64,000 nt of DNA from Bacillota bacterium. GTDB lineage: Bacteria; Bacillota; Clostridia; Peptostreptococcales; Anaerovoracaceae. The translations under genes and the position numbers were made by a program. Below, piece after piece: positions 677 through 62,622 of the stretch. Position 1 is the stretch's first letter; every line of letters begins with the position of its first letter. Location: positions 3,619 to 67,618 of the forward strand of contig JAFPXN010000044.1 of the NCBI GenBank assembly GCA_017412505.1, written 5' to 3'. Below the pieces are notes generated by a model that saw only the letters and a list, made by a program, of their open reading frames with translations, made no database searches and was not told the origin of the DNA.

Positions 677-705
677 TTATTAAGAATTGTGTCAAGTGTT
701 ATAAT
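677..705 (+). promoter_or_regulatory. Extended -10 promoter candidate for the DUF3800 gene
   Basis: TGtTATAAT at 697-705, a weak -35 TTATTA at 677-682 with a 17-nt spacer, 44 nt upstream of ATG 749. Confidence 0.4.
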
Positions 706-748
706 TTACTGCATTTACATAAATAGTAATTTATGGTATAGTGCTGAT

Positions 749-1324
749 ATGGTTCTTTTTGTCGATGAAACAGAAAATTTAAAATATTTCATAGTGGCTG
801 GATTGATTGTTGATAACCAGGCTTCCATGGAACTTGCATATAAAACATTCAAGAAAAGTTTATCCGGATTCAACATTCCCCCCAAATATAAATCCAAAGT
901 GTTTACTGAGTTCAAGTCAACTCTGCTAGATCGGGATTATAAAAAAATCAAAATTTCACTTTTGATGACTGTTAGAAATGCAAGCTTTTTGATTCTATAT
1001 TCTATCTATGAAAAAGTTTCACCACGGATTGATCAATTGACTAAAGAGAAAATATATATCCAAAATCTTTCGCACATAATTGAGAATCTGAAAGAGACGG
1101 GTGACATAGTTTTTGATGGATTTGGGAAAGCTGATTTTGAAAAGGATATCATGGATGCCTTTAAAGATGATCCTAGGGTTCTAAGCATTCGACCTGCGGA
1201 TTCTCAGACCGAACACGGGTTACAATTTGTTGACAACATATGCAGCACAGTGCGCTTGCATAAGTCTGAAATGGATATGGATAATTACTTCGATATTATC
1301 AGAGATATTGCAAAAGAGGTTTGA
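749..1324 (+). CDS. DUF3800-family protein of unknown function, on an AT-rich islet
   Basis: N-terminal MVLFVDETEN (the FxDE(S/T) motif) and C-terminal ADSQTEHGLQFVDNI (DS..LQxxD motif), at the family's usual size of about 190 aa. I prefer ATG 749 to the GTG at 689 in the ORF track because the -10 element sits at 700-705. Confidence 0.65.
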   Translation: MVLFVDETENLKYFIVAGLIVDNQASMELAYKTFKKSLSGFNIPPKYKSKVFTEFKSTLLDRDYKKIKISLLMTVRNASFLILYSIYEKVSPRIDQLTKEKIYIQNLSHIIENLKETGDIVFDGFGKADFEKDIMDAFKDDPRVLSIRPADSQTEHGLQFVDNICSTVRLHKSEMDMDNYFDIIRDIAKEV

Positions 1325-27340: not shown

Positions 27341-27358
27341 GGCTTTCTCCGGAATGGT

Positions 27359-27868
27359 TTACTGTTCTTCGGATTCTTTCAGGAAATTCATCTGCACGTA
27401 GTACTTGCAGGCGAAGGACAGGGCGAAGTTCTCCATCAGGTATTTCTGCTCCCTGCCGGCGATGTGGTTGTCCTTGATGTGAACTTCACCGCTGAATACG
27501 GCGCTCACCGCGTTCTCGATGGCTTCGCAGAAGCGGTTGTACGTGGTCTCGCGGCCTGCTTCGAGGTCGAGGCCCATGCGGATCAGTTTGCCCACGTCCT
27601 CCGTCTCATAGCAGCTCTTCAGAATATATACGACGATGATCATGGCGACGGACACCCGCGGATAGCGCTTGTTGACCGGCGCCTGCACGATGCGGGCTTT
27701 GACGTAGTTGTTGATCATGTTCTTCGTGACCGGCGCGATGCCGACGCTGCCGAAGAAGCCGCCCAGACTGCCGTTGATCAGCGTGATGACTTGCTCCATA
27801 TACAGATCGACCGCTGGGAGCTGCTCCCAACGGGGGATATGGAACGCTGCGGCCTGTGTTTTCTCCAT
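27359..27868 (-). CDS. DUF1836 domain protein
   Basis: IPRWEQLPAVDLYMEQVITLIN..VTKNMINNYVK motif. The start at 27868 is preceded by AGGAGG. Confidence 0.65.
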   Translation of the reverse strand: MEKTQAAAFHIPRWEQLPAVDLYMEQVITLINGSLGGFFGSVGIAPVTKNMINNYVKARIVQAPVNKRYPRVSVAMIIVVYILKSCYETEDVGKLIRMGLDLEAGRETTYNRFCEAIENAVSAVFSGEVHIKDNHIAGREQKYLMENFALSFACKYYVQMNFLKESEEQ

Positions 27869-28034
27869 GGTTTTCCTCCTGTTGTACAACATATAATTAT
27901 ATCATTCCGTTATTTTTGCGTAAAGATTGACACGGTCAAGAATACAAAGTAACATAGTGTTCAATACTACGTGCTTTTGTGGTATAATAAATAAGTTATT
28001 AGTCCCCATCGAAAGTAATATAGAGGAGTTTATC

Positions 28035-29834
28035 ATGATCTATACTCAGAGAGGTCTGGATTGGGCGATGGATTTCATCGACCGGATCAATGCCGACCCC
28101 AGCAAATATGTTATGTACAAGCAAAGCCGTCCCATCGCGAACCTGAAGCACATGATGGTGACGACCGTGGACCTTTACCCCGGCAATACGGCTTTCATGA
28201 TGAAGTTCCCGGGCGATAAGACATATACGTCCATCACGTTCGCGCAGGTGCTGGAGGAGATGAACGCCCTCGGCACCGCGCTCATCGCGAGAGGCCTGAA
28301 GGGCAAGCGCATCGCGGTCTGCGGCGAGAACTGCTACTACTGGTGCCTGTCCTATCTGGCGGCGGTCAACGGCGTGGGCGTCGTCGTCCCCCTGGATAAG
28401 GAACTGCCGGACACAGACCTGAAAGGCCTTGCGACGGCGGCGGAGTGCGCCTGCGTGCTGACCACGAAGAAGCATATGGAAGCGTTCCGCGGCATGCTGG
28501 AGAATCACGAAGGCAGCGTCGAATGCGTCGTCGGCATGTACACGGAACCCGGCGGCGACGGATCCGTCCTTTCCCTGAAGGACCTGATCGAAGAAGGCAA
28601 GAAGCGGATCGCGGAAGGCGACAGAAGCTATATCGACGCGCAGATCGACGAGGAAGCCATGGGCATCCTGCTGTACACGTCCGGCACGACGGGCCTGTCC
28701 AAAGGGGTCATGCTGTCGCATAAGAACATCTGCGCCGACCTGATGAGCTCGCCGAACCTGCTGGAAGTGAAGCCCACCGACATCTTCTTCAACGTGCTGC
28801 CGCTGCATCACACCTATGCCTGCACCTGCGACTTCCTGATGCCCATGTACAAGGGCACCTGCGTCGCGTTCTGCGAAGGCCTGAAGTATATCCAGAAGAA
28901 TCTGAAGGAAGTGCAGCCCACGTTCTTCCTGGGCGTTCCCGCCATCTTCGAGAGCCTGTACAAGGCGATCAACAAGAACATCAAGAAGCAGGGCAAGGAG
29001 AAGACCGTCGCCAAGCTCCTGAAGATCAACCGCTTTACGAAGAAGATCGGTCTCGACCTGGTGCCGAAGTTCATGGGACAGATCCTGGACGTTTTCGGCG
29101 GACGGATGAAGACCATCATCGCCGGCGGCGCCGCCATGGACCCTGTCATCACGAACTTCTTCCTGGATCTGGGCTTTAAGGCGGTCCAGGGCTACGGCCT
29201 GACGGAATGCTCGCCCATCGCCGCGCTCAACCCCGACAAGCGCGAGATGGCCAATCCCGCCGCGGCGGGCCGCGTGCTGCCCAACACCCAGGCGAAGATC
29301 GTCGACGCCGGCGAAGACGGCAACGGCGAGATCTGCATCAAGGGCGACCACGTCATGCTGGGCTACTACCAGATGCCGGAACAGACGGCGGAAGTGCTGA
29401 TCGACGGCTGGTACCACACCGGCGACCTGGGATACATCGACGAGAACGATTTCATCTTCATCACCGGCCGCAAGAAGAACGTCATCATCACCGCGAACGG
29501 AAAGAACGTCTATCCGGAAGAACTGGAATACAAGCTGTCCCTCAGCCCGTACGTGGCGGAATCCATGGTCTGGGCCGCGGAGGACGAGCAGGGTCACGAC
29601 AGCAGCATCGTCGCGACGATCATTCCCGACAAGGAAGAGGTCGAAAACGCGCTGGGCAAGGACGCTCCGGCGGACAAGGTGCTGGAGCTGCTGCAGGGCG
29701 AGGTCAACAAGCTGAACGATCAGGAGCCGCTGTTCAAGCAGATCCGCAGAGTCGTTCTGCGTACGGAGCCCTTCGTCAAGAATACTTCCGCGAAGATCAA
29801 GAGATTCGAAGCGGACAACAAGAGACTGAACTGA
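28035..29834 (+). CDS. AMP-dependent synthetase/ligase (long-chain fatty-acid-CoA ligase-like)
   Basis: LLYTSGTTGLSKGVMLSH (AMP-binding motif I), GYGLTE and TGDLGYIDENDFIFITGRKKN. ATG 28035 is preceded by AGGAG. Confidence 0.85.
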   Translation: MIYTQRGLDWAMDFIDRINADPSKYVMYKQSRPIANLKHMMVTTVDLYPGNTAFMMKFPGDKTYTSITFAQVLEEMNALGTALIARGLKGKRIAVCGENCYYWCLSYLAAVNGVGVVVPLDKELPDTDLKGLATAAECACVLTTKKHMEAFRGMLENHEGSVECVVGMYTEPGGDGSVLSLKDLIEEGKKRIAEGDRSYIDAQIDEEAMGILLYTSGTTGLSKGVMLSHKNICADLMSSPNLLEVKPTDIFFNVLPLHHTYACTCDFLMPMYKGTCVAFCEGLKYIQKNLKEVQPTFFLGVPAIFESLYKAINKNIKKQGKEKTVAKLLKINRFTKKIGLDLVPKFMGQILDVFGGRMKTIIAGGAAMDPVITNFFLDLGFKAVQGYGLTECSPIAALNPDKREMANPAAAGRVLPNTQAKIVDAGEDGNGEICIKGDHVMLGYYQMPEQTAEVLIDGWYHTGDLGYIDENDFIFITGRKKNVIITANGKNVYPEELEYKLSLSPYVAESMVWAAEDEQGHDSSIVATIIPDKEEVENALGKDAPADKVLELLQGEVNKLNDQEPLFKQIRRVVLRTEPFVKNTSAKIKRFEADNKRLN

Positions 29835-29849
29835 AGATCCGTTTTATGA

Positions 29850-29873
29850 GCCCGGCGTCGCGCCGGGCTTTTT
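29850..29873 (+). terminator. Intrinsic terminator after the acyl-CoA ligase gene
   Basis: GCCCGGCG-UCG-CGCCGGGC followed by UUUUU. Confidence 0.75.
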
Positions 29874-29927
29874 GTTTGCCGGGTCATACAAGTGCCAGAT
29901 GGGGAAAATCTTTGGTATAATAGCATT

Positions 29928-31358
29928 ATGAAAAGAATCGTTTCCTGGATCCTCATAACGGTCATGATGATCTGCTGCGCGGGCTGCACTTCCGGAGAAC
30001 AGAAGCCGGAAGAGCTTTCGGCGGGGTTTTATGTTGCGGATGAAAACGAGCTGTACCTGTGGGAGAACGGCGTCGGCATGCTCGTGACGCAGCAGAGCGG
30101 CAGCGAAAACGGCGCGCTGGTGACGCGGGCCTCCTATAACGGGATCTCCTGGACGCCGGATTCGCTGCGGATCGAGCGGGAGGACATACCGTTCGGTCTG
30201 CAGCAAAGCAAAACGGATCCGGAGAAGACTGTGCTGGAATTCGTCTTCGGCGGGACGCAGTTTCGCTTTGTGCTTGCGGCAGATCCTTCCGCAATGCCGG
30301 TCTTCTGGGGTCCCGACGGGTCCGATGGCGCGGAGATCCCCGGGTCCTATCTGGGAGAGGCCGGAGAAGAGGCTGTGTTTTATGAGGATGGTACGGGAGT
30401 TCTGAAAGCGGATGGCGCGGAGACGCCTTTCTGCTGGGGCGTCCATAACATCACGTTCCTGATCATAGACAGCTTTTTGAGCAATCTGGATCTTTCCGCC
30501 GGGTGCATCTCCTTCACGACCGGTCTGGAACCGGCATTTACCATGGAGTCCGAGGAGGTCGTACGGGAGAGGGAGGCGTATCTGCCCCTGGGCAACGCCG
30601 GAGAACTCGATGGCAGGATCGTTGTCTTTACGGTCTTTGCGAGCGGATCCGATTACCGCTGGGACTTTTCGAAACAGGAAGACGCAGATCGAAAGAATAA
30701 ATGTCTGAAAGACCTCTCGGAAGCGACAGTGTATCTGACGGAGAACGCTGCGCTGTACGGCAGGAACGCGGAGTTTCTCTACGATTGGACCGCGGATCCG
30801 CGGCTTGCTGTCGAATATGAGGCAAATTACCCGATGGCGAATTCCGCGAAGACCAAATCCGTCGCGTACGAATTGGCGCCGGCAAGGCAGCTGAAAGAGC
30901 AGTACGATGCCGATCAGGTCATCTACCTGTTCATCGTAAACACGGACTATGAAAACGAGCAGAGGTCCCATGCGAATTCCTATGACCCGGATAAGATCGA
31001 GGGAAAGGCGGCGCTGACAGACCTGATCGAGTACGTGAAGATCGATCTGCGCTATTCCCGCGAAGGGGAAACGTGGGACGCACAATCTTCCACGTACGCG
31101 CACGAGATCCTTCACCTGTTCGGCGTGCCGGACCTGTACAAGGCCGGCCCTCTGATCACGCAGGAATACGCGGATCATATGGACGCCGTGATGCGCACCG
31201 CGCCGCATCCGGATATCATGTACGGCGGCGTAGCCGGTTGGAGCGCGTGGGATCACGCATTTTCCGGCGTGGACGCCTATTATGCCGGCCTGACGGATCA
31301 CTGTGAAGACGTCGAGGCATACGGGCTGGGGAAGAGCCAGCACAGGACAGACCAATGA
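29928..31358 (+). CDS. Lipoprotein with an HExxH zinc-metalloprotease-like motif
   Basis: MKRIVSWILITVMMICCAGC lipobox. YAHEILHLFGVPDLY lies near the C-terminal third. Confidence 0.55.
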   Translation: MKRIVSWILITVMMICCAGCTSGEQKPEELSAGFYVADENELYLWENGVGMLVTQQSGSENGALVTRASYNGISWTPDSLRIEREDIPFGLQQSKTDPEKTVLEFVFGGTQFRFVLAADPSAMPVFWGPDGSDGAEIPGSYLGEAGEEAVFYEDGTGVLKADGAETPFCWGVHNITFLIIDSFLSNLDLSAGCISFTTGLEPAFTMESEEVVREREAYLPLGNAGELDGRIVVFTVFASGSDYRWDFSKQEDADRKNKCLKDLSEATVYLTENAALYGRNAEFLYDWTADPRLAVEYEANYPMANSAKTKSVAYELAPARQLKEQYDADQVIYLFIVNTDYENEQRSHANSYDPDKIEGKAALTDLIEYVKIDLRYSREGETWDAQSSTYAHEILHLFGVPDLYKAGPLITQEYADHMDAVMRTAPHPDIMYGGVAGWSAWDHAFSGVDAYYAGLTDHCEDVEAYGLGKSQHRTDQ

Positions 31359-32299
31359 GCAAATACGACATAGTATTCATCGGAACAGCGATCGTCGACG
31401 CGATCCTGAAGGGTTTTGACCCGAAGCCCGTCTCTGCGACAGGTTACCGGGCGGACAGCTGTTCCCTGCACGCGGGCGGCGAAGCCGTCAACGGGGCGAT
31501 CGCTGCCGCCAAACTGGGCATGAAGACGGCGATCCTCTGCGCGCTGGGCAAAGACGCGGCAGGGAACATGATCGAGGCGCAGCTGGCTGCAAACGGCGTG
31601 GACACGAGCCTGATCGTGCGGTCTGCCGATCATCCCACGCCTGTCACGGCGATGTTCGTGGCGGAGGACGGCAGCCGCAGGTCGATCACGAACAAGGCGC
31701 ACCGGTACAACTTTCATCCGGAGCGATACGCAGATGCGATGACGGACGCCGGAGCGGTCGTGCTTGGCTCGCTGTTCCGGACTCCGTTCGATGACCCTGA
31801 GGTGGTCCTTCAGATCGTGGAAACTGCACATGCGAAGGGTGTTCCCGTCTTTGCGGACACGAAACTTCCGAACTTCACGAAACTCAGGCTCGAAGACCTC
31901 GCGGATTCCCTGCCGTTGATCGACTGTATCACGCCGAACGAAGACGAAGCCCGTTATTACAGCGGAGAGGACGACCCGGAAAAGATGGCGGACGTCTTCC
32001 TGGACGCGGGCGTGGGCAGTGTGATCATTAAACTCGGCGGCAAGGGGTGTCTGTTCAAGAATAGGGAACGCTCGCTGTATCTGCCGGCCTGTCCCATCGC
32101 CGCGGTCGACGCGTCTGGCGCGGGAGACAACTTCCTGGCAGGCTACGTTTCCGAGATCTTGCGAGGGAGCAGCGTCGACCAGGCCTTGACCTTTGCGAAC
32201 GCCTGCGGCGCGATCTGTACGACGGCAGTCGGCGCCTGCACGGCGCTGCAGGACAGGCAGCAGGTGGAGGAATTCATAAAAAAAATGTCAGAGAAATAA
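31355..32299 (+). CDS. PfkB-family carbohydrate kinase
   Basis: The C-terminal signature DASGAGDNFLAGY and ribokinase-like length. The start overlaps the upstream stop. Confidence 0.8.
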   Translation: MSKYDIVFIGTAIVDAILKGFDPKPVSATGYRADSCSLHAGGEAVNGAIAAAKLGMKTAILCALGKDAAGNMIEAQLAANGVDTSLIVRSADHPTPVTAMFVAEDGSRRSITNKAHRYNFHPERYADAMTDAGAVVLGSLFRTPFDDPEVVLQIVETAHAKGVPVFADTKLPNFTKLRLEDLADSLPLIDCITPNEDEARYYSGEDDPEKMADVFLDAGVGSVIIKLGGKGCLFKNRERSLYLPACPIAAVDASGAGDNFLAGYVSEILRGSSVDQALTFANACGAICTTAVGACTALQDRQQVEEFIKKMSEK

Positions 32300-32310
32300 A
32301 AGAACAGGGA

Positions 32311-33699
32311 TCACAGAGAAGAGGGCTGCCCGTTTTCCGCGGGCAGTCTTTTGTATATGCGGAAATACATGACGATGCAGCAGAGGCTGGCCCCGATGAT
32401 CTGGGACAGCATCTCCGCGTAGAACACGCCCATGACGCCGAAGCCGACGCGCGGCAGCAGGATCGTGAGAGGCACGATCAGGAACAGCTTGCGCAGCATG
32501 GAGAAGAACACCGCGTATTTCGGCTTGTTGAGCGCGACGAACGTGTTCTGTCCGCCCATCTGGAAACTCATCATGAAATAGGCGGCGTAGTAGATGTGCA
32601 GGCAGGGGATGGCCGTTTCGATCAGCGCGGCGTCGTTCGTGAACATGCGGATGAGCTGCGCCGGATGGGTGAACACGACGATCCAGGCGATCACGTTGTA
32701 GGTAAGCGCAGCCGCGATCATAAAGCGGATGGCCTTCTTGACCCGGTCGTAATTCCGGGCGCCGTAATTGTAGCTCATGACGGGAACGGAAGCCTGATTG
32801 ATGCCGCTGATCGGCTGGCTGATGACTTCCCGCATGGAATTGATGATGGAAAACGCGCCGATGTACAGCGTGCTGGCTGCGCCGCCGAACGTCTTCAGCG
32901 TCAGGTTGACGACCGTCTGCGCCACGCTGTTGGAGAACTTGAACATAAAGCCCGTCACGCCGAGCTTCAGGATGCGGGGCACTTCCAGCATGTCCAGATG
33001 GAGCCTCTGGATGGGCAGCAGGGTCTTGTTCCCGGTCAAAAACCGGATGACCCAGACAGAACTGACGAATTGGGAGATGACCGTGGCGATCGCGGCGCCT
33101 TTTACGCCCATGTGCAGCACGAAAATGAACAGGGGGTCTAGCGCGATGTTCAGGGCGGCGCCGATGACGACGGTCCCCATGCCGATCTTCGTAAAACCCA
33201 TGCCGTTGATGAAGGGGTTCATGCCGAGGCTGATCAGCACGAAGACGGTGCCGGCGACGTAGATGCGGAAATATTCCAAGGCGAAGGGCAGCGTCTCTTC
33301 ATCCCCGCCCATGGCGGCCAGGAAAGGCCCCGCGAAGAGGAAAAGGATCGCTGTCAGCAGCGCGCTGAAGATCAGCAGCATCGTGAAGGCCGTCTCCAGG
33401 ATGCGCTGTGCCCGGGCGTTGTCGCCCTCGCCCCGCGCGATGGAGCACAGGGGATTGCCGCCCGTGCCGCACAGGTTTGCGAACGCGGTGATCAGGGAAA
33501 TGAGGGGAAAGGCGATGCCGACGCCGGACAGCGCCGCCGTACCGATGCCGGGGATGTGCCCGATGAAGATGCGGTCCACAATGTTGTAGAGCACGTGGAC
33601 GATCTCGGCCATCGCGATGGGGATACCGAGTCTTAAAACCGTTTTAGGGATGCTTCCCTGCGAAAAATCGCCTTTTTTAGGGGTTGTCTGCTGTGCCAC
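32311..33699 (-). CDS. MATE family efflux transporter
   Basis: 462 aa, 12 TM segments, and an N-terminal LRLGIPIAMAEIVHVLYNIVDRIFIGH typical of the MATE/NorM family. Confidence 0.85.
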   Translation of the reverse strand: MAQQTTPKKGDFSQGSIPKTVLRLGIPIAMAEIVHVLYNIVDRIFIGHIPGIGTAALSGVGIAFPLISLITAFANLCGTGGNPLCSIARGEGDNARAQRILETAFTMLLIFSALLTAILFLFAGPFLAAMGGDEETLPFALEYFRIYVAGTVFVLISLGMNPFINGMGFTKIGMGTVVIGAALNIALDPLFIFVLHMGVKGAAIATVISQFVSSVWVIRFLTGNKTLLPIQRLHLDMLEVPRILKLGVTGFMFKFSNSVAQTVVNLTLKTFGGAASTLYIGAFSIINSMREVISQPISGINQASVPVMSYNYGARNYDRVKKAIRFMIAAALTYNVIAWIVVFTHPAQLIRMFTNDAALIETAIPCLHIYYAAYFMMSFQMGGQNTFVALNKPKYAVFFSMLRKLFLIVPLTILLPRVGFGVMGVFYAEMLSQIIGASLCCIVMYFRIYKRLPAENGQPSSL

Positions 33700-33770
33700 C
33701 GGGGGATCTGCCTTTCTGGGTGCCTTTATTATAGCACAGAAGAACGATGGCGGCGTACCCGCCCGGAATC

Positions 33771-33827
33771 TTTACAAACCACAAGATATAGCGTACAATG
33801 ACAATATAATCGCAACATTCTTGTGGA
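33771..33827 (+). promoter_or_regulatory. nrdR promoter with NrdR-box-like sequences
   Basis: -35 TTTACA at 33771-33776 and -10 TACAAT at 33794-33799 with a 17-nt spacer. CCACAAGATATAGCGT (33779-33794) matches the NrdR-box consensus acaCwAtATaTwGtgt at 13 of 16 positions. A weaker second box lies at 33812-33827, 33 bp away. Confidence 0.35.
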
Positions 33828-33852
33828 CTATGGAACAGTCAGGAGAACGAAT

Positions 33853-34374
33853 ATGAAATGTCCGTTTTGTGAAGCCCCGGATACCAAAGTCATCGACTCC
33901 CGTCCGACCGAAGAGGGTCATGCCATCCGCCGCCGCAGAGAATGCGAAAAGTGCGGAAAACGCTTTACCACGTATGAAAAGGTGGAAGAAGTCTTCTTCA
34001 TGGTGGTCAAACGGGATGGCAGCCGCGAATCCTTCGACCGCAACAAGGTGCTGAACGGCATCGTGAGAGCCTGCGAAAAGCGCCCGGTCACCATGGAACA
34101 GATGGAATCCGTCGTGTCCGAGGTCGAAAGAGGCCTGAACAACATGATGGAGAAGGAGATCAGCAGTTCCTTCATCGGCGAGGTCGTCATGGAAAAGCTG
34201 AAGGATCTGGACGAAGTCGCCTACGTGCGGTTCGCCTCCGTCTACCGTCAGTTCAAGGACGTGAATACGTTCATCGCGGAGATCGAGAAACTGCTGGGCA
34301 CCGACGCCGGCGGCAAGCTGAAGAAATCCGCCAAGGCGCCGAAAGCTCCGGCTCTGCCCGCGGAAGAGGAGTAG
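33853..34374 (+). CDS. nrdR: Transcriptional repressor NrdR with a Lys/Ala/Pro-rich C-terminal tail
   Basis: [42 protein letters not shown] (zinc ribbon) plus an ATP-cone. Confidence 0.9.
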
Positions 34375-37670: not shown

Positions 37671-39001
37671 GTTGGATGACCTGGATAACCTGGTTCTTCT
37701 CGTCCCTGGGGATGTGGAAGATTCTGCAGAAATACGGAAAAGCCACCTGGCAGGCCTTTGTTCCCGGCTTGCGGTATTACCGTCTGGGACAGGCGTGCGG
37801 GCGCGATAAGGAAGGGCTTTACTGCCTCGTCTTCGAGGTGGTCTGCCGGCTGCTTGCGGCAGCGGCGAAACTCCTTCCTGAGGAAAGCAAGCCGACATTC
37901 TTCCTGAATGTGGTCGCCCTCGTCGGCGCGATCGTACTCGCCGTGTTCGAGATCCGCGTCATCGCGGGCCTCTGCCAGGCATTCGAGCTGAAAAAGCGCT
38001 GGATCGTATTTTGGGTACTCGCCGCCAGCGTCGCTTCCATGATCATCGGCTACTCCAAGCGGTTCCAGCCGGTACATGCCGCAGTGGCAGACGAAGAGAT
38101 CCTGGCTGGTACGCAGCCGGCGGAACTGAGCGCGCCGGTCGCGGAGAGCGAGAGCGGCGAAGGCCTTGCCATCCACGTGCGGGCAAGGACGGCCCGCGCC
38201 TTCGGCAAGACCCGCTATCTGCTGAAGGACGTTCACCTGACCATCCCCAACGGCTCGCTCGTCCTGCTGCTGGGCGGTTCCGGCGCGGGCAAGACCACGC
38301 TGGTGAACGCCATCACAGGCTACGAAAAGGCCGACGCGACCATACGCCTGAACGGCATCGACGTGTATCAGAACTACAACGAGATAAAGCATAAGATCGG
38401 CTTCGTTCCCCAGCAGGACCTGCTGCGCATGAACGATACCGTATCGAAGACGCTGGGCGACGCGGCTTTGATGCGCCTGCCCGTTACGGTCTCCGCGAAG
38501 GAACGCCAGGAAAAGATCGAAGCCGTCATGGACGTGCTGGGACTTTCCGGCAGGGCGGACGGCCTGGTCGCCAAGAAGTCCGGCGGACAGAAAAAGCGCA
38601 TCTCCATCGGTACAGAGCTGATCAGCGACCCGGAACTGTTCATCCTGGACGAACCGGATTCCGGGCTGGACGGCGTCATCGCGCGGGAACTGTTCGAGAA
38701 GCTGCGCAGCGTAGCGGACATGGGCAAAGTCGTGATCGCGATCACGCACACCCCGGACCGCGTCGCGGACCTGTTCGACAAGGTGATCGTGCTGGCGAGA
38801 GACTCCGGCAAGGTGGGACGGCTGGCGTTCTACGGGTCACCGGACGAGGCGCGGGAATTCTTCGGCAAATCCTCCATGGAGCAGGTCGTGCTCGCCATCA
38901 ACAGCGAATACGAGGGCGGCGAAGGCCGCGCAGACGAATTCATCGAGAAATACGCAAGACGGACCGCAGCGAAAGAGAAGGAGGTGACCGTCCATGAATG
39001 A
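37667..39001 (+). CDS. ABC transporter ATP-binding protein with an N-terminal membrane domain (DUF5684-like)
   Basis: ATG 37667 overlaps the sdaA stop. The N-terminus WFFSSLGMWKILQKYGKATWQAFVPGLRYY is followed by more TM segments. Then come Walker A GGSGAGKTT, the signature SGGQKKR and Walker B LFILDEPDSGLD. Confidence 0.8.
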   Translation: MSWMTWITWFFSSLGMWKILQKYGKATWQAFVPGLRYYRLGQACGRDKEGLYCLVFEVVCRLLAAAAKLLPEESKPTFFLNVVALVGAIVLAVFEIRVIAGLCQAFELKKRWIVFWVLAASVASMIIGYSKRFQPVHAAVADEEILAGTQPAELSAPVAESESGEGLAIHVRARTARAFGKTRYLLKDVHLTIPNGSLVLLLGGSGAGKTTLVNAITGYEKADATIRLNGIDVYQNYNEIKHKIGFVPQQDLLRMNDTVSKTLGDAALMRLPVTVSAKERQEKIEAVMDVLGLSGRADGLVAKKSGGQKKRISIGTELISDPELFILDEPDSGLDGVIARELFEKLRSVADMGKVVIAITHTPDRVADLFDKVIVLARDSGKVGRLAFYGSPDEAREFFGKSSMEQVVLAINSEYEGGEGRADEFIEKYARRTAAKEKEVTVHE

Positions 39002-43376: not shown

Positions 43377-43629
43377 ACAGCTCCCAGCGGCATTCCGGGA
43401 TGAAATACTTCAGCTGATAGCGCCGTTCGGCGCCGCCGATGTCGCTCTGGCAGTCGTACACGTAGACGGGCACGCCGGCAAAGCGCTCCTCGGACGCGGT
43501 GAGGATGCGCTTGACGTACACTTCCCGGTTCGTACCGTCCGGCTCGGTATAGCGGAATTTATAGGGGAGGGGCTTGCCGCTCCCTTTGAAGACGACGATG
43601 GCGTCTATGGGTCTCATCAGCAGTTTCAT
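43366..43629 (-). CDS. Small hypothetical protein (88 aa)
   Basis: ORF with ATG at 43629 (MKLLMRPIDAIVVFKGSGKPLPYKFRY..CRWELFKM). Its GC content matches its neighbours, but I recognised no motif. Confidence 0.4.
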   Translation of the reverse strand: MKLLMRPIDAIVVFKGSGKPLPYKFRYTEPDGTNREVYVKRILTASEERFAGVPVYVYDCQSDIGGAERRYQLKYFIPECRWELFKM

Positions 43630-43703
43630 AGGCTTGTCCTTTAAACAGTCTGTTCGCAAGATCATTATAAAGAACATATGTTCGCATTTCAAGAGGTATT
43701 ATC

Positions 43704-44516
43704 ATGAAACTTACGATCCTCTCCGAAAACAATACGCATACCCGGGAGCCTTATCTGATGGGCGAACCCGGCTTTTCCTGCTACATCGAGTGCGGCGGCA
43801 AACGCATCCTGCTGGATACGGGCTATTACGGCGTCGCGGTGAAGAACGCGGAAACGCTGGGCATCGATCTGAACGGCCTGGACTATATCGCAATCTCCCA
43901 CGGCCATGACGACCACACGCACGGTCTGCTGCCGCTGCTGGAAGCAGGGATCGACGTCAGCCGGACAAAGCTCGTCGTCCACCCGAAGGCGCTGCTGCGC
44001 AAGGTCGTAGACGGTACGGAATCCGGTTTCCCCTGGCCCGGGGACGGGATCCGCAGCCGGTTCGACGTGCTGGAAGCGGCGCAGCCGTTGGAACTGGCGG
44101 AAAACCTGTGGTATCTGGGGCAGATCCCCCGGACGAACGATTTCGAGAATCAGACGCCCATCGGCTTCGTCGTGGACGAGGGAAGGGAAGAACCGGACTT
44201 CATCCTGGACGATACGGCGCTCGCCTACAGAACGGACGAAGGCGTCTTCATCATCACCGGCTGTTCGCACAGCGGGATCTGCAACATCTGCGAATACGCA
44301 AAGAAAGCGCTGGGCTACGATACGCTGCTCGGGGTCATCGGCGGATTCCATCTGCTGAAGCCCGGCCGCCAGCTCGAGGAGACCATACGCTATTTCGAAC
44401 GGGAAAAGCCCGCGAAGCTCTGCCCGTGCCACTGCATCTCCATGGGGTGCAAGTTCCGGATCGCGCAGGCGCTGCCCATCGAAGACGTGGCGGTCGGCTA
44501 CGAACTGGAGATCTGA
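43704..44516 (+). CDS. MBL-fold metallo-hydrolase
   Basis: LLDTGY..ISHGHDDHTHGL (HxHxDH motif) and CSHSG. Confidence 0.8.
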   Translation: MKLTILSENNTHTREPYLMGEPGFSCYIECGGKRILLDTGYYGVAVKNAETLGIDLNGLDYIAISHGHDDHTHGLLPLLEAGIDVSRTKLVVHPKALLRKVVDGTESGFPWPGDGIRSRFDVLEAAQPLELAENLWYLGQIPRTNDFENQTPIGFVVDEGREEPDFILDDTALAYRTDEGVFIITGCSHSGICNICEYAKKALGYDTLLGVIGGFHLLKPGRQLEETIRYFEREKPAKLCPCHCISMGCKFRIAQALPIEDVAVGYELEI

Positions 44517-54106: not shown

Positions 54107-55378
54107 ATGGCAGTAGTAATTAATCAAGAATTATGCAAAGGTTGCAAGATCTGCGTCAAGAACTGCCCGTTCCAGGCGATCGACTTCGACGAGACCACCA
54201 GAAAAGCGACCATTAACGAGAAGTGCACGGCTTGCTCCGTCTGCATTTCCAAGTGCCCGTTCAAGGCAATCTCCAAGGACGAGAGCGACGAAGTCGATCT
54301 GTCCGCTTATAAGCATATCTGGGTCTTTGCCGAACAGAGAGACGGCGAACTCATGGGCGTAGCGAAGGAACTGATCGCCTGCGGCCGCAGACTTTCCAGA
54401 GACATCTCCCCCGAGACCAAGTGCTATGCGCTGCTCGTCGGCAACAACCTGGGAGCGCTCGGACAGGAAGCGATCGAATGGGGCGCTGACGGCTCCATCC
54501 TCATCGAACATCCGCTGCTTGAACACTTCAACACCGACGGTTACACCAAGGTCATCTGCGACGCGATCCAGGAAATGAAGCCCGAGATCATCCTCTACGG
54601 CGCAACCCACATCGGCCGCGACCTGGCTCCCCGTGTAGCCGGCAGATCCAACGTCGGTCTGACCGCAGACTGCACCGGTCTGGAAGTCGACCTCGAGAAG
54701 TACAAGGCATACTGCGCAAAGGAAACCACGCTCGACCTGTCCACGCTGGAAGGCGAGGACCCGAACGACAAGTGCATCAAGCAGACCCGTCCGGCATTCG
54801 GCGGCAACCTGATGGCCACCATCGTTTCCAAGAAGACCAGACCGCAGATGTCCACCGTACGTCCCGGCGTTATGTCCAAGCAGGAAAGAGTTCCCGGCGC
54901 TCAGGGCGAGATCATCAAGGTCACCCCGAAGCTCGAAGAGAGCGACATCCGCACCAAGATCATCAAGATCGTCAAGGAAGCCAAGGAAATGGTCTCCCTG
55001 ACCGACGCCAAGATCATCTGCTCCGGCGGTCGTGGTCTGGGCGGTCCGGAAGGATTCAAGCTCATCGAAGAATTCGCGAACAAGGTCGGCGGCGTTGTCG
55101 GTTCTTCCCGTGCCTGCGTTGACGCTGGCTGGATCGGCCACGAACACCAGGTCGGTCAGACCGGTACCACCGTCAAGCCCGACATCTACTTCGCATGCGG
55201 CATCTCCGGCGCTATCCAGCACCAGGCGGGCATGAAGAACTCCAAGCTGATCGTTGCGATCAACAAGGATCCGGATGCTCCGATCTTCGGCATTGCTGAC
55301 TACGGTATCGTCGGCGACCTGTATAAGGTCATCCCCATGATCATCGAAGAATGGGACAACTTCTCCACAGCTCTGTAA
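54107..55378 (+). CDS. etfA: Electron transfer flavoprotein alpha subunit with an N-terminal 2x[4Fe-4S] ferredoxin domain
   Basis: [12 protein letters not shown] and [12 protein letters not shown] within residues 1-65. A canonical EtfA follows ([28 protein letters not shown]). Confidence 0.9.
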
Positions 55379-55401
55379 TATTTTCTACAAGACCTTTAAG
55401 G

Positions 55402-55427
55402 GCGGCTCTCCGGAGCCGCTCTTTTTT
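55402..55427 (+). terminator. Intrinsic terminator after etfA
   Basis: GCGGCUC-UCCG-GAGCCGC followed by UCUUUUUU. Confidence 0.8.
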
Positions 55428-55436
55428 GTTTTTGTG

Positions 55437-55462
55437 CACATGGGGACAGGTACAATGTGTCG
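55437..55462 (+). repeat. Solo copy of a 26-nt repeat (CACATGGGGACAGGTACAATGTGTCG)
   Basis: Identical to 60150-60175 and, in inverse orientation, to 60182-60207. Confidence 0.9.
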
Positions 55463-55505
55463 TTTTGATCCGCAGCAGGTGCCGGGACGCAAAAGCAGAA
55501 TGATT

Positions 55506-55637
55506 GCCACCCCTCGGGGTCCTGTCGTCCAACGCATCCTCATGCTGTCGCTACGCTCATCCGCGACCGCAGCTCTTGGGAGTCACGGCGCTCGCTGCGC
55601 TCCGGCATGAGCCTCTTTGGACGCCACCCCTCGGGGT
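55506..55637 (+). other. 102-nt three-way-junction element flanked by 15-nt direct repeats
   Basis: GCCACCCCTCGGGGT occurs at 55506-55520 and 55623-55637. Between them, the helices are 55526-32/55617-23, 55539-45/55605-11, 55547-51/55563-67 and 55568-73/55594-99. Confidence 0.6.
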
Positions 55638-55669
55638 TAGACAGTCATTTGCATTATTTTTTGTAAAAT

Positions 55670-55779
55670 GCCCTTAAAAACAAGGACAAATACAATTAAA
55701 GAAGCAAAAGACCTTTATTTTAGATGGGAAGTAAAGGAAAACTTTGCTTTTTGTAGAATTGCCTTTGTTTTCTAAGGGC
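55670..55779 (+). ncRNA. Candidate structured RNA: a 110-nt AT-rich extended hairpin
   Basis: Three stacked helices: 55670-85/55762-79 (16 bp, two bulges), 55699-710/55742-52 (11 bp, one G.U, one bulge) and 55712-17/55732-37 (6 bp). Confidence 0.3.
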
Positions 55780-55829
55780 TTTTATTAATAAACTCATGAT
55801 TGCCTTTACCCTAGTGCTAAGAAATAAGT

Positions 55830-55895
55830 ATTGACTTGCAAAGTATTGATACGGATTGGAGTCAATCGGGACCACGTTGAGTGGAAGTGTGCCCG
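55830..55895 (+). other. Two adjacent small hairpins
   Basis: ATTGACT/AGTCAAT (55830-36/55860-66) with an inner CAA/TTG. CGGG/CCCG (55867-70/55892-95) with an inner CCAC/GTGG. Confidence 0.4.
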
Positions 55896-55969
55896 GGACT
55901 AACTTATATCGTCACAAGACTTTTCCTTCATCTATCAATTATCAATAATATTTTAATTTGCGGTCTGTA

Positions 55970-56187
55970 ATCGGGTGATGTGGTGCAATCGGAGGGAATC
56001 GTCTGTGTTTCCGGTTTCTGAGCGTAATCCGTTTCGGACGCGCGCCTGAGGGTGCTGCGGCGGAGCGATGCCCGAGGCCGAGTTTCGCAAAGACGAAACC
56101 GGACGAGTCCGCGAAGCTGCGCCGAAACGGCACGCGAAAGAAATCGATGAAACACCAGATTCCCGACTTTGCACCACAATATCCGAT
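55970..56187 (+). ncRNA. Candidate ncRNA or MITE-like element: a 218-nt GC-rich imperfect hairpin (6S-RNA-like fold)
   Basis: Collinear helices: 55970-74/56183-87 (5 bp), 55979-88/56169-78 (10), 55994-56000/56158-64 (7), 56005-11/56149-55 (7), 56012-19/56139-46 (8, one G.U), 56022-25/56132-35 (4) and 56029-37/56122-30 (9). The apical stem is GUUUCG-CAAAGA-CGAAAC at 56082-56099. Confidence 0.35.
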
Positions 56188-56250
56188 GAAGATCGTTTGC
56201 GTATATAGAACAGATTGACAATATTATCCATTTTATGTTACTGTAAAAAT

Positions 56251-56643
56251 ATGGATAATATTGAGAGGGATAAAATTAAGAAGAAAAGGGGCAGGAAGGG
56301 CGAGGACCTGGCTTGCGAATTCCTGAGACAGAACGGCTACCGCGTGATCGAGCGCAATTTCCGCTGCAAAATGGGCGAGATCGATATCGTGGCGACCGAC
56401 GGAGAGCATATCTGCTTTACGGAGGTCAAAGCCCGCACCCGGACGGATTACGGCATGCCCAGAGACGCGGTGGACCGCAGAAAACAGCAGAAACTCCTGC
56501 GCTGCGCGCAGCTGTATCTGAAGCTGCATCCGGGCTATGCGCAGCGCTTTTCCCCACGCATGGATATCGTGGAGGTCCTTTACACGGAGGAAGGAACTTA
56601 CGCGCGCCATACGCCCAACGCATTTTCTCTTTCCTCGGGATGA
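56251..56643 (+). CDS. yraN: YraN-family (UPF0102) endonuclease-like protein
   Basis: GRKGEDLACEFLRQNGYRVIERNFRCKMGEIDIVA..ICFTEVKAR. Confidence 0.85.
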   Translation: MDNIERDKIKKKRGRKGEDLACEFLRQNGYRVIERNFRCKMGEIDIVATDGEHICFTEVKARTRTDYGMPRDAVDRRKQQKLLRCAQLYLKLHPGYAQRFSPRMDIVEVLYTEEGTYARHTPNAFSLSSG

Positions 56644-59058: not shown

Positions 59059-60135
59059 ATGAAAGCAGCAGTTTGGCACGGTTATAAGGACGTTAGGATC
59101 GAAGACAGACCTGTTCCCGAACCCAAGGCGGGGCAGGTGCGCATCAAAGTGGACTATGCGGGCATCTGCGGTACGGACCGCCACGAATACGTGGGACCGA
59201 ACTTCATTCCGGTCACGAAGCCGCACCGTCTGACAGGCCGCACGGCGCCGCTCATCATCGGACACGAATTCTCCGGCCGCATCGACGCGGTGGGCGAAGG
59301 CGTTTCCGGCTGGGAACCCGGCCAGCGCGTGACCGCCAACGGCAGCCTGACCTGCGGCGAATGCGAACTGTGCCGCTCCGGCCGCTACAATATCTGCAAG
59401 AAACTTGGATTTGTAGGCGTCGGAGACGACGGCTGCTTCGCGGAATATCTGGTCGTCGGCGCGGATAAACTGTTTGCGATCCCGGACGAAGTGACCCAGA
59501 AGGAAGCCGCCGTAGCGGAACCTCTGGCCTGCGGCATCCACGCTACGAACCTGATCGGCGATCTGGGCGGGGTCAAAGGGAAACTGGCCGTCATCGTCGG
59601 CCCCGGCATCATCGGCATCGGCGCGTTCTACGCGGCGAAACTGGCCGGCGCCCGCAAGGTACTGGTGATCGGCCGCGGGGAAGAGAAGCGAGCGGTCATC
59701 GAAAAACACGGCGGGGAATTCCTGAACACTGCGCTGCTGGAAAACGGCGCGGCGGACGTTCCTTCGTACGTGGAAAAATGGTCGGACGGCGCGCTGGCGG
59801 ACGTCGTCTACGAATGCGCCGGCACCCAGCAGACGCTGGATCTTTGCGTGCCCATCGTAAAACCCGGCGGCATCCTGATGGTCATGGGCGTGTTCGGACA
59901 GAAACCCGTCATCGATATGAATACGGTGCAGGAAGCCGAGCGCATCATCCTGACGAGCCAGGCCCACGTGAACGAGATCGCGGAAGCGCTGGAATACATC
60001 CGGAAGGGAGAGATCGACGCGGACGAACTCGTCACGCGCGTCGTGACGCTCGATACCCTCGTGGAAGACGGTTTCGAGGAGCTGGAGCGCAATTCGAAGA
60101 ACCACATCAAGGTGTTGATCAGGATCAGCGAATAG
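59059..60135 (+). CDS. Zinc-dependent medium-chain alcohol/polyol dehydrogenase
   Basis: GICGTDRHEY, GHEFSG, the structural-Zn loop CGECELCRSGRYNIC, and GPGIIG (Rossmann fold). Confidence 0.85.
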   Translation: MKAAVWHGYKDVRIEDRPVPEPKAGQVRIKVDYAGICGTDRHEYVGPNFIPVTKPHRLTGRTAPLIIGHEFSGRIDAVGEGVSGWEPGQRVTANGSLTCGECELCRSGRYNICKKLGFVGVGDDGCFAEYLVVGADKLFAIPDEVTQKEAAVAEPLACGIHATNLIGDLGGVKGKLAVIVGPGIIGIGAFYAAKLAGARKVLVIGRGEEKRAVIEKHGGEFLNTALLENGAADVPSYVEKWSDGALADVVYECAGTQQTLDLCVPIVKPGGILMVMGVFGQKPVIDMNTVQEAERIILTSQAHVNEIAEALEYIRKGEIDADELVTRVVTLDTLVEDGFEELERNSKNHIKVLIRISE

Positions 60136-60142
60136 ACGGGAC

Positions 60143-60214
60143 AAAAGAACACATGGGGACAGGTACAATGTGTCGCAAAAACGACACATTGTACCTGTCC
60201 CCATGTGTTCTTTT
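60143..60214. repeat. Perfect 33-bp-arm palindrome acting as a bidirectional terminator; same repeat family as 55437-55462
   Basis: AAAAGAACACATGGGGACAGGTACAATGTGTCG-CAAAAA-CGACACATTGTACCTGTCCCCATGTGTTCTTTT lies between the convergent stops at 60135 and 60224. Confidence 0.9.
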
Positions 60215-60223
60215 CTGGAACTT

Positions 60224-61816
60224 TTACGCTTCGTAGACGGTTCTGCCGCCTAGGACGGTCTTCAGCACACGCGTGTCTTTGATCGCCTCCGGTTCGACTG
60301 TAAAGATATCGCGGTCGAGCACGAGGAAATCCGCCAGTTTTCCCGGCGTGATCGTTCCCTTGATCTCCTCCTCGAAGGAGTCGTAGGCAGCGTACTTCGT
60401 ATAGGTGCAGACGGCGTCGTAAACGGACATCTTATTCTCCGGGCAGCTGCCGCCTTCCGGCCAGCCGTGTTGATCGCAGCGGGTCACGCAACAGTAGATG
60501 CCCAGCCACGGATCCTCGTCCAGGCCCGGCGCGTCGGATCCGGACGTCACGACGACGCCTTCCCGCAGCATGCGGCCCCAGGCGTTCGCGTAGGGCATGC
60601 GCGCCGCGCCGATGCGGTCTTCGATCCATGCCGCATCGGTATCCATGTACAGCGGTTCCGCGTCGATGACGACGGGAAGCTTGCGGATCCTCTGCAGCAC
60701 GTCCTCCGTAGCGACTTCCAGGTGGATCATGCGGATGCGCGGGTCGGGCTGCGGATCTTCGCGCAGCAGCGTCTCGATGGAATTCGTCAGCATCTCGCAG
60801 GCCTTGTCGCCGATGACGTGGGTGCCTGTCTGGATGCCGAGGGAATAGGCCTTGCGCAGCTCTTCCGTCAGACCTTCCTGCGTATAGTTCAGCACGCCCG
60901 TGTTGCCCGGATCGTCGCAGTAGGGCTCGATCATGGCGGCGCTTCTGCCGCCGAGTCCTCCGTCCAGAAAGACCTTGTAATAGCCGTAGCGCAGCAGCTC
61001 GTCGCCTTCGCCTCGATGGGCCTTCAGTTCTTCGAGGTCGTCCGTGGCATAATACAGGCGGGCGTTCAGGCGGCCTTCGTCTTTCAGCTTCTGATAAGCT
61101 GCCATGTACTCCGGCAGGTTGACGTGCCTGGCCTGCACGGGATGGGCGCCGGTGAAGCCTTTCTTATTCAATTCGCGGATCGCCTTTTCCAGCACGTCCG
61201 CCTTCGCTTCGAGCGTGGCGTAGGCGTCCGGCATAAGGGAGACGACTTTCAGGCCCGAAGCGTCGCTCAGCACGCCTGTAGGTTCTCCGTCTTCCCCGAA
61301 CAGCGCCGTTCCTTCCACTTCCGGCTTGAAATTCCGGTCGATGCCGGCCGCTGCCAGCGCCGCGGAATTCGCGGAGAAGAAGTGCATGCACCAGCGGCCG
61401 ATCACGACTTTGTGATCCGGACAGGCCGCGTCCAGCACTTCCTTCGTCGGCAGGCTTTTATCATCCGTAAAGCGCTCGTTGTCGAAACCGAATCCGTAGA
61501 TCCATTCTCCCGCGGGAACGTTCTTTGCGTAATCCCGCAGCTTTTCCTGCAGTTCCCTGACCGACGTGACCTTGTCCAGCAGCAGTCTTTCCAGATTGCA
61601 GGCATAGGGGAAGAGGTGGATGTGGGTGTCGATCAGCCCCGGGATGACGGTCTTTCCCTGCAGGTCGATCACGTCGTCCGCCATCGCGGCCGCCTGTTCG
61701 CTGCTGCCGCAATAGACGAATCTGCCGCCGCGCACCGCGATCGCTTCGCACGCGGCGCCGTCGTTTTCCATGGTGTAGATCTTCGCGTTGACGTATGCGG
61801 TCGTTTTCTCCATCAT
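60224..61816 (-). CDS. Amidohydrolase-family (Amidohydro_3-like) metal-dependent hydrolase
   Basis: MMEKTTAYVNAKIYT.., VIPGLIDTHIHLF, and later GSDAP. The start at 61816 follows AAGGAGG. The upstream 158 codons of the 688-aa ORF overlap the SDR gene and were discarded. Confidence 0.8.
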   Translation of the reverse strand: MMEKTTAYVNAKIYTMENDGAACEAIAVRGGRFVYCGSSEQAAAMADDVIDLQGKTVIPGLIDTHIHLFPYACNLERLLLDKVTSVRELQEKLRDYAKNVPAGEWIYGFGFDNERFTDDKSLPTKEVLDAACPDHKVVIGRWCMHFFSANSAALAAAGIDRNFKPEVEGTALFGEDGEPTGVLSDASGLKVVSLMPDAYATLEAKADVLEKAIRELNKKGFTGAHPVQARHVNLPEYMAAYQKLKDEGRLNARLYYATDDLEELKAHRGEGDELLRYGYYKVFLDGGLGGRSAAMIEPYCDDPGNTGVLNYTQEGLTEELRKAYSLGIQTGTHVIGDKACEMLTNSIETLLREDPQPDPRIRMIHLEVATEDVLQRIRKLPVVIDAEPLYMDTDAAWIEDRIGAARMPYANAWGRMLREGVVVTSGSDAPGLDEDPWLGIYCCVTRCDQHGWPEGGSCPENKMSVYDAVCTYTKYAAYDSFEEEIKGTITPGKLADFLVLDRDIFTVEPEAIKDTRVLKTVLGGRTVYEA

Positions 61817-61827
61817 CTTTGCCTCCT

Positions 61828-62622
61828 TTACGCGATGCCGCCTCCGTCGACGACGAGCGCGGCTCCGGTGACCCATCCGGCCAGGTCGGAGCACAGGAAC
61901 AGCACGCATTTCGCGATGTCTTCCGGCTGTCCGATGCGGGCGAGGGGACGTCCGCTGCCGCAGGCCTTCAGGAATTCTTCGATGTCGTCGTCGGACTTGA
62001 TCTCGCCGGTCTGGCGGCCTTCGGAGATCATCATGTTCGTCACGGTATCGCCTGGGTTGACGGAATTGACGCGGATATTGTCCTTGCCGTGGTCGATGGC
62101 CATGGCGCGGGTCACGTTGACGATGCCGCCCTTGACCGCGCAGTAAGCCGCCGCCTGGTCGCCGCCTTTCAGCCCCCAGCCGGAACCGGTGTTGACGATG
62201 GAACCGCCGCCGGCCTTTCTCATCTCGGGAATGACGTATTTGCTCATCAGGAACAGTCCCTTGAGACCGACGTCCAGCACGAAATCCCATTCCTTTTCGC
62301 TGAGCGCGTCGATGGTCTTGCGCACGGTGACCCCGGCGTTGTTGTGCAGGATGTCGATATGTCCAAACGCGGAGACGATGCCTTCGACAGTCTCCTTCAC
62401 GTTCTGTTCGTTCGTTACGTCGCAGCGGAAAAACTGCACGTTTCTTCCCGCTTCGCGGAATTTGCGTGCTTCCTCTTCGCCTGCCGGGTTCACATCCACG
62501 ATCGCGACGGCAGCGCCGTAGGCGGAGAGCATGTCCGCGACCGCGAGGCCGATGCCGGAACCTGCCCCGGTGACGACGGCGGTTTTTCCACTGAGATCCA
62601 GATAGTCTTTTCTTTCAAACAT
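61828..62622 (-). CDS. SDR-family oxidoreductase
   Basis: TGAGSGIGLA (cofactor motif), NNAG and YCAVKGG (YxxxK). The start at 62622 follows AAAGGAG. Confidence 0.85.
   Translation of the reverse strand: MFERKDYLDLSGKTAVVTGAGSGIGLAVADMLSAYGAAVAIVDVNPAGEEEARKFREAGRNVQFFRCDVTNEQNVKETVEGIVSAFGHIDILHNNAGVTVRKTIDALSEKEWDFVLDVGLKGLFLMSKYVIPEMRKAGGGSIVNTGSGWGLKGGDQAAAYCAVKGGIVNVTRAMAIDHGKDNIRVNSVNPGDTVTNMMISEGRQTGEIKSDDDIEEFLKACGSGRPLARIGQPEDIAKCVLFLCSDLAGWVTGAALVVDGGGIA

Follow-up and report, generated by a model that had tools for sequence, protein, structure and literature searches.

The spacer between etfA and yraN in a rumen Clostridia genome is probably a mosaic of dispersed hairpin-forming repeats

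We analyzed the spacer between etfA and yraN in a 64-kb stretch of contig JAFPXN010000044.1 from a Bacillota bacterium (the whole stretch, 64,000 nt, is called the window). The gene etfA lies at 54107–55378, and its product has an N-terminal ferredoxin domain. From its stop codon (55378) to the ATG of yraN (56251), a YraN/UPF0102 gene, the spacer is 872 nt long. Crude tiling of open reading frames (ORFs) suggested two bigger gaps, and ordinary genes were found inside both, so the spacer is the longest gene-free stretch of the window. In seven independent metagenome contigs from this organism, gene callers left the spacer without a gene, and no tRNA was found in it. A Pfam search with all nine spacer ORFs gave no significant match; the sole listed match had an E value of 0.17, far below the cutoff. 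As the ORFs had no significant Pfam match, pseudogene and small-protein readings were dropped.

An earlier note on this DNA had described the spacer as gene-free, the longest of the window, dense in hairpins and mosaic in composition, and all of this was confirmed. The minimum free energy of the + strand of the spacer was −293.6 kcal/mol versus −236.5 ± 5.5 for shuffled sequences (z = −10.4), and the − strand gave z = −6.4. The G+C content was 28–31% at 55650–55850 versus 62–65% at 55500–55650 and 56000–56150. Short local direct repeats and recurring TGCC(C)TT motifs were present inside the spacer. The modules named in the earlier note (terminator, solo arm, direct repeats, AT-rich hairpin, two small hairpins and GC-rich hairpin) were all found where it had placed them. 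The features are given below. L-numbers are labels for loci or contigs of strains, relatives and other rumen metagenome-assembled genomes (MAGs) that were compared with the window.

55398–55433, + strand: etfA intrinsic terminator from the terminator scan; hairpin at 55398–55423 with an 11-bp GC-rich stem, and a T run.
55437–55466, + strand: solo arm, half of a palindromic repeat; identical at 30/30 and 26/26 positions to the two arms at 60150–60207.
55468–55497, + strand: left-arm remnant of a GC-rich hairpin copy at position A; L024 and L027 carry a full hairpin here, in the orientation opposite to that of the window copy.
55506–55637: one 117-nt repeat unit and a second copy of its 15-nt end, GCCACCCCTCGGGGT; direct repeats at 55506–55520 and 55623–55637.
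55657–55792: long AT-rich hairpin, an inverted repeat that folds; the hairpin itself spans about 55663–55785.
55829–55912: module X, two small hairpins; 89% identity in L025–L028, 78% in L011, absent from L024.
55955–56195, + strand: GC-rich hairpin element at position B; stem 55970–56187, conserved core 55982–56176, with matches to the family hidden Markov model.
56215–56263, + strand: yraN promoter and an overlapping 16-nt inverted repeat, read from the sequence.

Relatives were found through YraN homologues and pattern scans. The collection scans used exact matches only, so copies were undercounted. Contigs with identical EtfA had the same 872-nt spacer with only four single-nucleotide polymorphisms. 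In L008 and L009 (about 98.7% identical), 55428–55499 was missing (a 72-nt indel), and the solo arm had no counterpart. L008 carried the 117-nt unit in tandem, in at least two copies, and then the contig ended. In relatives with YraN 76–97% identical, the spacers were about 290–440 nt long, and their modules differed in content, order and orientation. The spacers compared were as follows.

L024/L023, flanks 91–97% identical: arm, reversed GC-rich hairpin at position A, solo 15-mer, short linker.
L027, YraN 97% identical: the content of L024 plus the AT-rich hairpin and module X.
L011, YraN 84% identical: reversed GC-rich hairpin right after the terminator, plus module X.
L016, YraN 76% identical: 313 nt; the sole module detected was a reversed GC-rich hairpin with a different apex.
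L013–L015, YraN 78% identical: 293 nt (L013 and L014); the sole module detected was the 117-nt unit, 76% identical.
L035, more diverged: module order of the window type.

Position B, where the window has its GC-rich hairpin, was empty in L024–L028. An inverton was ruled out because the opposite hairpin orientations occupy different positions (A and B); in addition, no promoter was found, and the GC-rich hairpin is palindromic throughout. At position A, the 11-nt direct repeat CGGGTCGCAAA in L024 brackets exactly the part of the hairpin that is absent from the window. This is the footprint expected of slipped-strand palindrome deletion, with loss from the window type as the presumed direction of change. 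Of the 117-nt unit, L024 and L027 have only a solo 15-mer.

Two side observations concern the same spacer. A 45-nt segment of L010 (2621–2665) had about nine differences from window 55468–55510, and outside it the contigs shared more than 97% identity; this would fit an exchange with a different copy of the repeat. Contigs L008–L010, L025–L029 and L033 end within the etfA–yraN spacer. Multi-copy repeats typically cause assembly breaks of this sort.

The etfA terminator and the yraN promoter were the only parts kept in every relative; everything between them varied. The terminator hairpin was found in the spacers of all relatives and forms the left border of the variable region, and the promoter forms the right border. 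The promoter reads TTGACA (56215–56220), 18 nt, TACTGT (56239–56244, with TGT just upstream), 6 nt and the ATG, with no Shine-Dalgarno sequence. A matching −35/−10/ATG geometry was present in L011, L013, L016, L027 and L029, and the distance from −10 to ATG was equal in L013 (TATAGT) and L016. Because the promoter abuts the ATG without a Shine-Dalgarno sequence, yraN is probably leaderless, with its start at 56251. The DNA between the borders (55434–56214) appears to be dispensable, which would explain why repeats build up there. A 16-nt inverted repeat, 56219–56234 and 56248–56263 (CAATATTATCCATTTT and AATATGGATAATATTG, 94% complementary), runs from the −35 box to codon 4 of yraN. Its left arm was kept in L011, L024, L027 and L029, and the repeat could be an operator.

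The GC-rich hairpin is dispersed. A 22-mer of its core was found in five stretches of three rumen MAGs (RUG11894, RGIG8458 and RGIG7540). These stretches are not the etfA–yraN locus, because they had no DNA match to the window outside the repeat modules. RGIG8458 had at least four copies on three contigs. Copies at unrelated loci were present in L017–L022 and L034. The genes beside dispersed copies were housekeeping genes (CoA transferase, Asp/Glu racemase, FTCD_C cyclodeaminase and tuf) and also a gene for a Big_5 protein. When the spurious 92-aa ORF that spans the hairpin was used as a protein query against metagenomes, only three clusters were obtained; the search located L034 and L035 but was no census. 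Within the 64-kb window, nhmmer profiles of the GC-rich hairpin and the 117-nt unit found no further copies. As a side observation, two inverted GC-rich hairpin copies in L020 (113–1933, MAG RGIG8458) bracket a 1.4-kb cassette beside tuf. The cassette encodes a 252-aa protein without a Pfam match and a 103-aa Cro/C1-type helix-turn-helix protein. It might be a repeat-flanked mobile cassette.

A filled and an empty site could be compared at one more place in the window.

29871–29886: empty site; the point that corresponds to window 29878 carries, in L022, a 229-nt GC-rich hairpin copy that closely follows a terminator.

L022 and window 26163–33990 are syntenic. No target-site duplication was found at this filled/empty pair; CCGGGTC (7 nt, at one end) is already present in the empty site. 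Some GC-rich hairpin copies end in TGACCCG...CGGGTCA, and the outer stems are more variable than the core. We considered whether the outer stem is copied from the target by template-switching palindrome extension. This was not supported, as just 6–7 nt at one end pre-exist in the two empty sites. The outer stems at different loci are related (GACCCG..GCAGG.GCC.GG), which indicates that the outer stem mostly travels with the element.

Pairing was kept among the copies. The consensus of ten GC-rich hairpins has 64 pairs and is 96.9% paired. Double-sided changes occurred in 21 of the 64 pairs versus 9.1 ± 1.8 in shuffles and 4–7 with the partners slid; the earlier note had suggested a check for such compensatory changes. 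Although no other part varies as much, the outer stem is almost always paired. The core of about 170 nt showed 79–91% identity across several species-level lineages, its asymmetric bulges are invariant, and the differences in apex length are not multiples of 3. On O+, the strand read as + in the window, about 20 G.U cells versus 5 A.C cells were counted in the family, and the consensus energy was −71.6 kcal/mol on O+ versus −50.1 kcal/mol on the opposite strand (O−). The G.U bias and the energy gap are hints that one strand matters. The window hairpin itself folds better on the + strand; the preference was absent or reversed in L017, L019, L020 and L022. A G56014.U56144 pair had been picked out in the earlier note. 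It was confirmed; in one strain, position 56144 is C, so that the pair becomes G–C.

These data bear on the possibility that single modules, chiefly the GC-rich hairpin, are functional RNAs: a multi-copy small RNA, a cis-acting family, or an RNA that guides or accompanies the enzyme of an unlinked mobile element, transcribed from the G.U-tolerant strand. The well-kept core with its invariant bulges, the 21 compensatory pairs, the G.U excess and the energy gap on O+ favor it. However, palindromic DNA covaries even where no RNA is made, and in single-stranded DNA, too, no mismatch is milder than G.T. No promoter-like site lies beside the window hairpin, which also has no terminator-like site of its own, and no Rfam match was obtained. 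By our own reading of the flanking ORFs, the copies are mostly O− in the sense of the flanking genes, whereas the window copy is O+. The strand preference that is absent or reversed in L017, L019, L020 and L022 also counts against this explanation. We consider this explanation unlikely. A little less likely again is that the GC-rich hairpin is an undescribed mobile structured nucleic acid, with a strand-specific RNA or single-stranded DNA intermediate, that acts as partner or guide of an unlinked enzyme, inserts next to terminators and carries neighboring modules along as a block of about 600 nt.

The 117-nt unit folds as one long unbranched hairpin. A three-way junction with direct repeats had been proposed for 55506–55637; the direct repeats are present, but the sequence folds without a branch. 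Compensatory changes were found in 7 of 42 pairs. At one stem position, three copies read GTCCAA/TTGGAC, GCCCAA/TTGGGC and GCCTAA/TTAGGC. The − strand folded better in all five copies. The unit was present at other loci in L021 and L034, and also in the spacers of L013–L015.

The AT-rich hairpin was found in L027, in L035 and in L034, an unrelated CoA-transferase locus; it was not found in L024 or L011. On the + strand, its 3′ side together with TTTTATTAAT resembles an intrinsic terminator (55761–55779, terminator scan). The + strand folded better in three of four copies. A uniform + strand bias, hinted at in the earlier note, thus fails, since the unit prefers the − strand while the AT-rich hairpin (three of four copies) and the window GC-rich hairpin prefer the + strand. 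As a separate observation judged by eye only, module X (55860–55909) seems to be inverted inside a unit-like stem in L032 (78–250), which would make L032 another rearranged form of this spacer.

The solo arm has a complete counterpart elsewhere in the window.

60141–60213: complete perfect palindrome of 73 nt with 26-nt arms, between the convergent genes 59059–60135 (+) and 60224–62290 (−).

This two-arm copy bore out the solo 26-nt arm of the earlier note. Each of the three arms matches its L024 counterpart at 100% identity, and the surrounding DNA is about 8% different. The identity despite diverged flanks suggests constraint or homogenisation. The arm CACATGGGGACAGGTACAATGTGTCG and its flanks, as read from the sequence, contain neither a GTAG nor a CGTC tag.

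Modules were also shared in combination. In L034, which is orthologous to the L021 CoA-transferase locus and belongs to another organism, the DNA from the terminator to the next gene, downstream of CoA-transferase genes, carries a contiguous GC-rich hairpin, 1.3 units and an AT-rich hairpin. L034 2278–2583 and window 55506–55811 are 89.5% identical over 306 nt, and in L034 the GC-rich hairpin precedes this segment. The orthologous site in L021 has a GC-rich hairpin and a partial unit only, and a full unit lies one gene further on. The sharing between the window and L034, set against L021, indicates that modules also move or are exchanged as a block.

The earlier note had raised a large structured non-coding RNA locus. 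In this explanation, the whole 872 nt, or the block of GC-rich hairpin, unit and AT-rich hairpin, is one RNA gene of the size and ornateness of OLE, GOLLD or ROOL. It would account for the folding energy of the + strand (z = −10.4), for the uninterrupted block of about 600 nt at L034, where the modules follow one another as in the window, and for the terminator-like T run that ends the AT-rich hairpin. Like OLE, GOLLD, ROOL, HEARO and raiA, the spacer has a fitting size range and an ornate predicted fold; it differs from them in having no covariance-model match and no fixed module order or orientation. In a cmscan search of the whole window with Rfam 15, no match reached the gathering score, for 6S, ROOL, GOLLD, raiA, HEARO, OLE or any other family. 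At E ≤ 10 over 55300–56350, there were just sub-threshold look-alikes of the etfA terminator (55341–55436) and noise. The + strand of the spacer showed no promoter-like site. Conservation does not extend to the spacer as a whole: relatives miss, invert or move modules while their flanking genes are 91–97% identical. Strains differ by the 72-nt indel and by unit copy number. One long + strand RNA is also disfavored because the modules favor different strands. The proposal was therefore unsupported, and we regard it as extremely improbable.

Taken together, the modularity of the spacer, the dispersal of its parts, their presence and absence, their changes of orientation and position, the tandem variation and the kept pairing were all observed. 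At least four families were distinguished: the palindrome with 26-nt arms, the tandem-prone 117-nt unit, the AT-rich hairpin and the GC-rich hairpin of about 230 nt. Non-orthologous copies were found for each of them, namely the GC-rich hairpin in L017–L022 and L034, the unit in L021 and L034, the AT-rich hairpin in L034 and the arm at 60141–60213. The spacer is thus probably a mosaic of the BIME/BOX/REPIN type, built from at least four families of non-coding, hairpin-forming repeats that are dispersed and non-autonomous, of the REP/REPIN, BIME (bacterial interspersed mosaic element), BOX, ERIC or MITE (miniature inverted-repeat transposable element) kind. The earlier note had offered a nest of MITE-like elements as its second option. 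In essence this was correct, since the modules are distinct units with copies at unrelated loci; strict MITEs are not supported, as no target-site duplication was seen in the one filled/empty pair. The lack of a target-site duplication, ends more variable than the core and travel as a block place the elements closer to the BIME/BOX/REPIN type.

Several results weigh against the mosaic of dispersed repeats. Within 64 kb, only the arm occurs twice. The copies are few (five genome stretches, three metagenome stretches and three clusters of the spurious ORF), well under the abundance of classical REPs and BIMEs. No transposase or RAYT partner was identified in the 64-kb window or in the short loci of relatives. 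Neither a target-site duplication nor a long conserved terminal repeat was found, so only presence/absence patterns suggest mobility. A transcribed functional RNA would also fit the conserved core of the GC-rich hairpin, with 20 G.U versus 5 A.C on one strand.

Local events could in principle produce such a spacer without any mobility, if a single unstable site rich in palindromes underwent duplication, inversion and template switching, or the spacer could be a decayed gene remnant. The direct repeats and TGCC(C)TT motifs inside the spacer, the deletion footprints between short repeats and the module X copy that appears by eye to be inverted in L032 fit local events. However, the modules occur at unrelated loci of other genomes, and the copy at the 29878 point is absent from the window. 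No frame gave a protein-family signal, and the apex lengths differ by non-multiples of 3. We judge such an origin very unlikely. A phage or plasmid origin was ruled out: blastn in the "distant" mode with 55424–56214 against plasmids and phages gave no match, and viral contigs scanned with exact patterns of the GC-rich hairpin, the 117-nt unit and the arm gave none.

The mosaic was compared with known systems. BIMEs of enterobacteria are built from REP/PU palindromes and other motifs (PMC3116915, PMC3733652). The spacer resembles them in being extragenic at gene 3′ ends, in motifs recombined across loci (window, L034, L021, L011 and L024) and in strain variation. As in BIMEs and BOX elements, motif combinations recur in varied arrangements, and the 117-nt unit is in tandem in L008 and L034. 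It differs in having no sequence similarity, modules of 117–240 nt rather than 20–40 nt and far fewer detected copies. The host here is an uncultured rumen member of the Clostridia/Bacillota. BIMEs have associated proteins such as IHF, gyrase or RAYT.

REPINs are hairpin-forming REP doublets that RAYT transposases mobilise (Bertels and Rainey 2011, PMC3116915), and REP palindromes have a GTAG or CGTC tag at one end (PMC3733652). The elements here share with REPINs the long two-arm hairpins, arm covariation that keeps pairing, solo arms as decay products, intergenic location and the absence of a target-site duplication. The two-arm palindrome at 60141–60213 and the compensatory pairs of the GC-rich hairpin and the unit show this likeness. 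In contrast to two short REPs and a spacer, the GC-rich hairpin is about 230 nt long with a structured core and a variable outer stem; in addition, the arm has no GTAG/CGTC tag, and no RAYT gene was seen in the 64 kb or the short relative loci.

Prokaryotic MITEs include Correia elements and, in Porphyromonas gingivalis, a MITE that contains a minisatellite (PMC4596501; reviewed in PMC10969869). Our elements are likewise small, non-coding, dispersed, polymorphic in presence/absence and hairpin-forming. They differ in the lack of a target-site duplication at the one filled/empty pair and in that no parent insertion sequence was identified. Their termini are more variable than the core, which is the opposite of transposase-recognised terminal inverted repeats.

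Structured intergenic elements of 100–300 nt also include BOX (boxA-boxB(n)-boxC) and RUP of Streptococcus pneumoniae and ERIC/IRU of enterobacteria. These are modular, with an internal module that varies in tandem like the 117-nt unit in L008 and L034. Their sequences and hosts are unrelated to those here, and the window mosaic has at least four module types.

A possible course of events for the mosaic is as follows. The etfA terminator and the promoter that abuts yraN enclose "free" DNA, in which elements would accumulate. New copies would insert a short way downstream of intrinsic terminators, as the positions in L011, L016, L021, L022, L024 and L034 suggest. Insertion would probably occur as single-stranded hairpin DNA, by a trans-acting transposase of the HUH/Y1 type (RAYT/IS200-like) or a recombinase. 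Such a single-strand route is likelier than a DDE transposase because there is no target duplication, and it also fits the wobble bias of the G.T type on one strand. Loss may proceed by slippage between short direct repeats, leaving solo arms and solo 15-mers, and blocks may be exchanged between loci by recombination between repeats. Any effect on the cell, such as extra termination or insulation or stabilisation of transcripts, would be a by-product.

Outside the spacer, three ORFs of the window (689–1324, 38011–38394 and 43574–43909) had third-position G+C of 0.33–0.47 versus 0.7–0.85 for most window genes. They may be foreign or miscalled.

That a long spacer has an ornate and stable predicted fold is no evidence of a large non-coding RNA; a look at close relatives quickly decides the matter. 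The analysis documents unnamed palindromic repeat families in an uncultured lineage of rumen Clostridia. Such repeats break metagenome assemblies, cause structural variation at the strain level and cluster between a terminator and a leaderless promoter. They are of use for MAG curation, for strain typing and for the study of the origins of REPIN/BIME-like elements outside Proteobacteria. The finding would be of wider interest only if the GC-rich hairpin is truly a transcribed, enzyme-partnered RNA.

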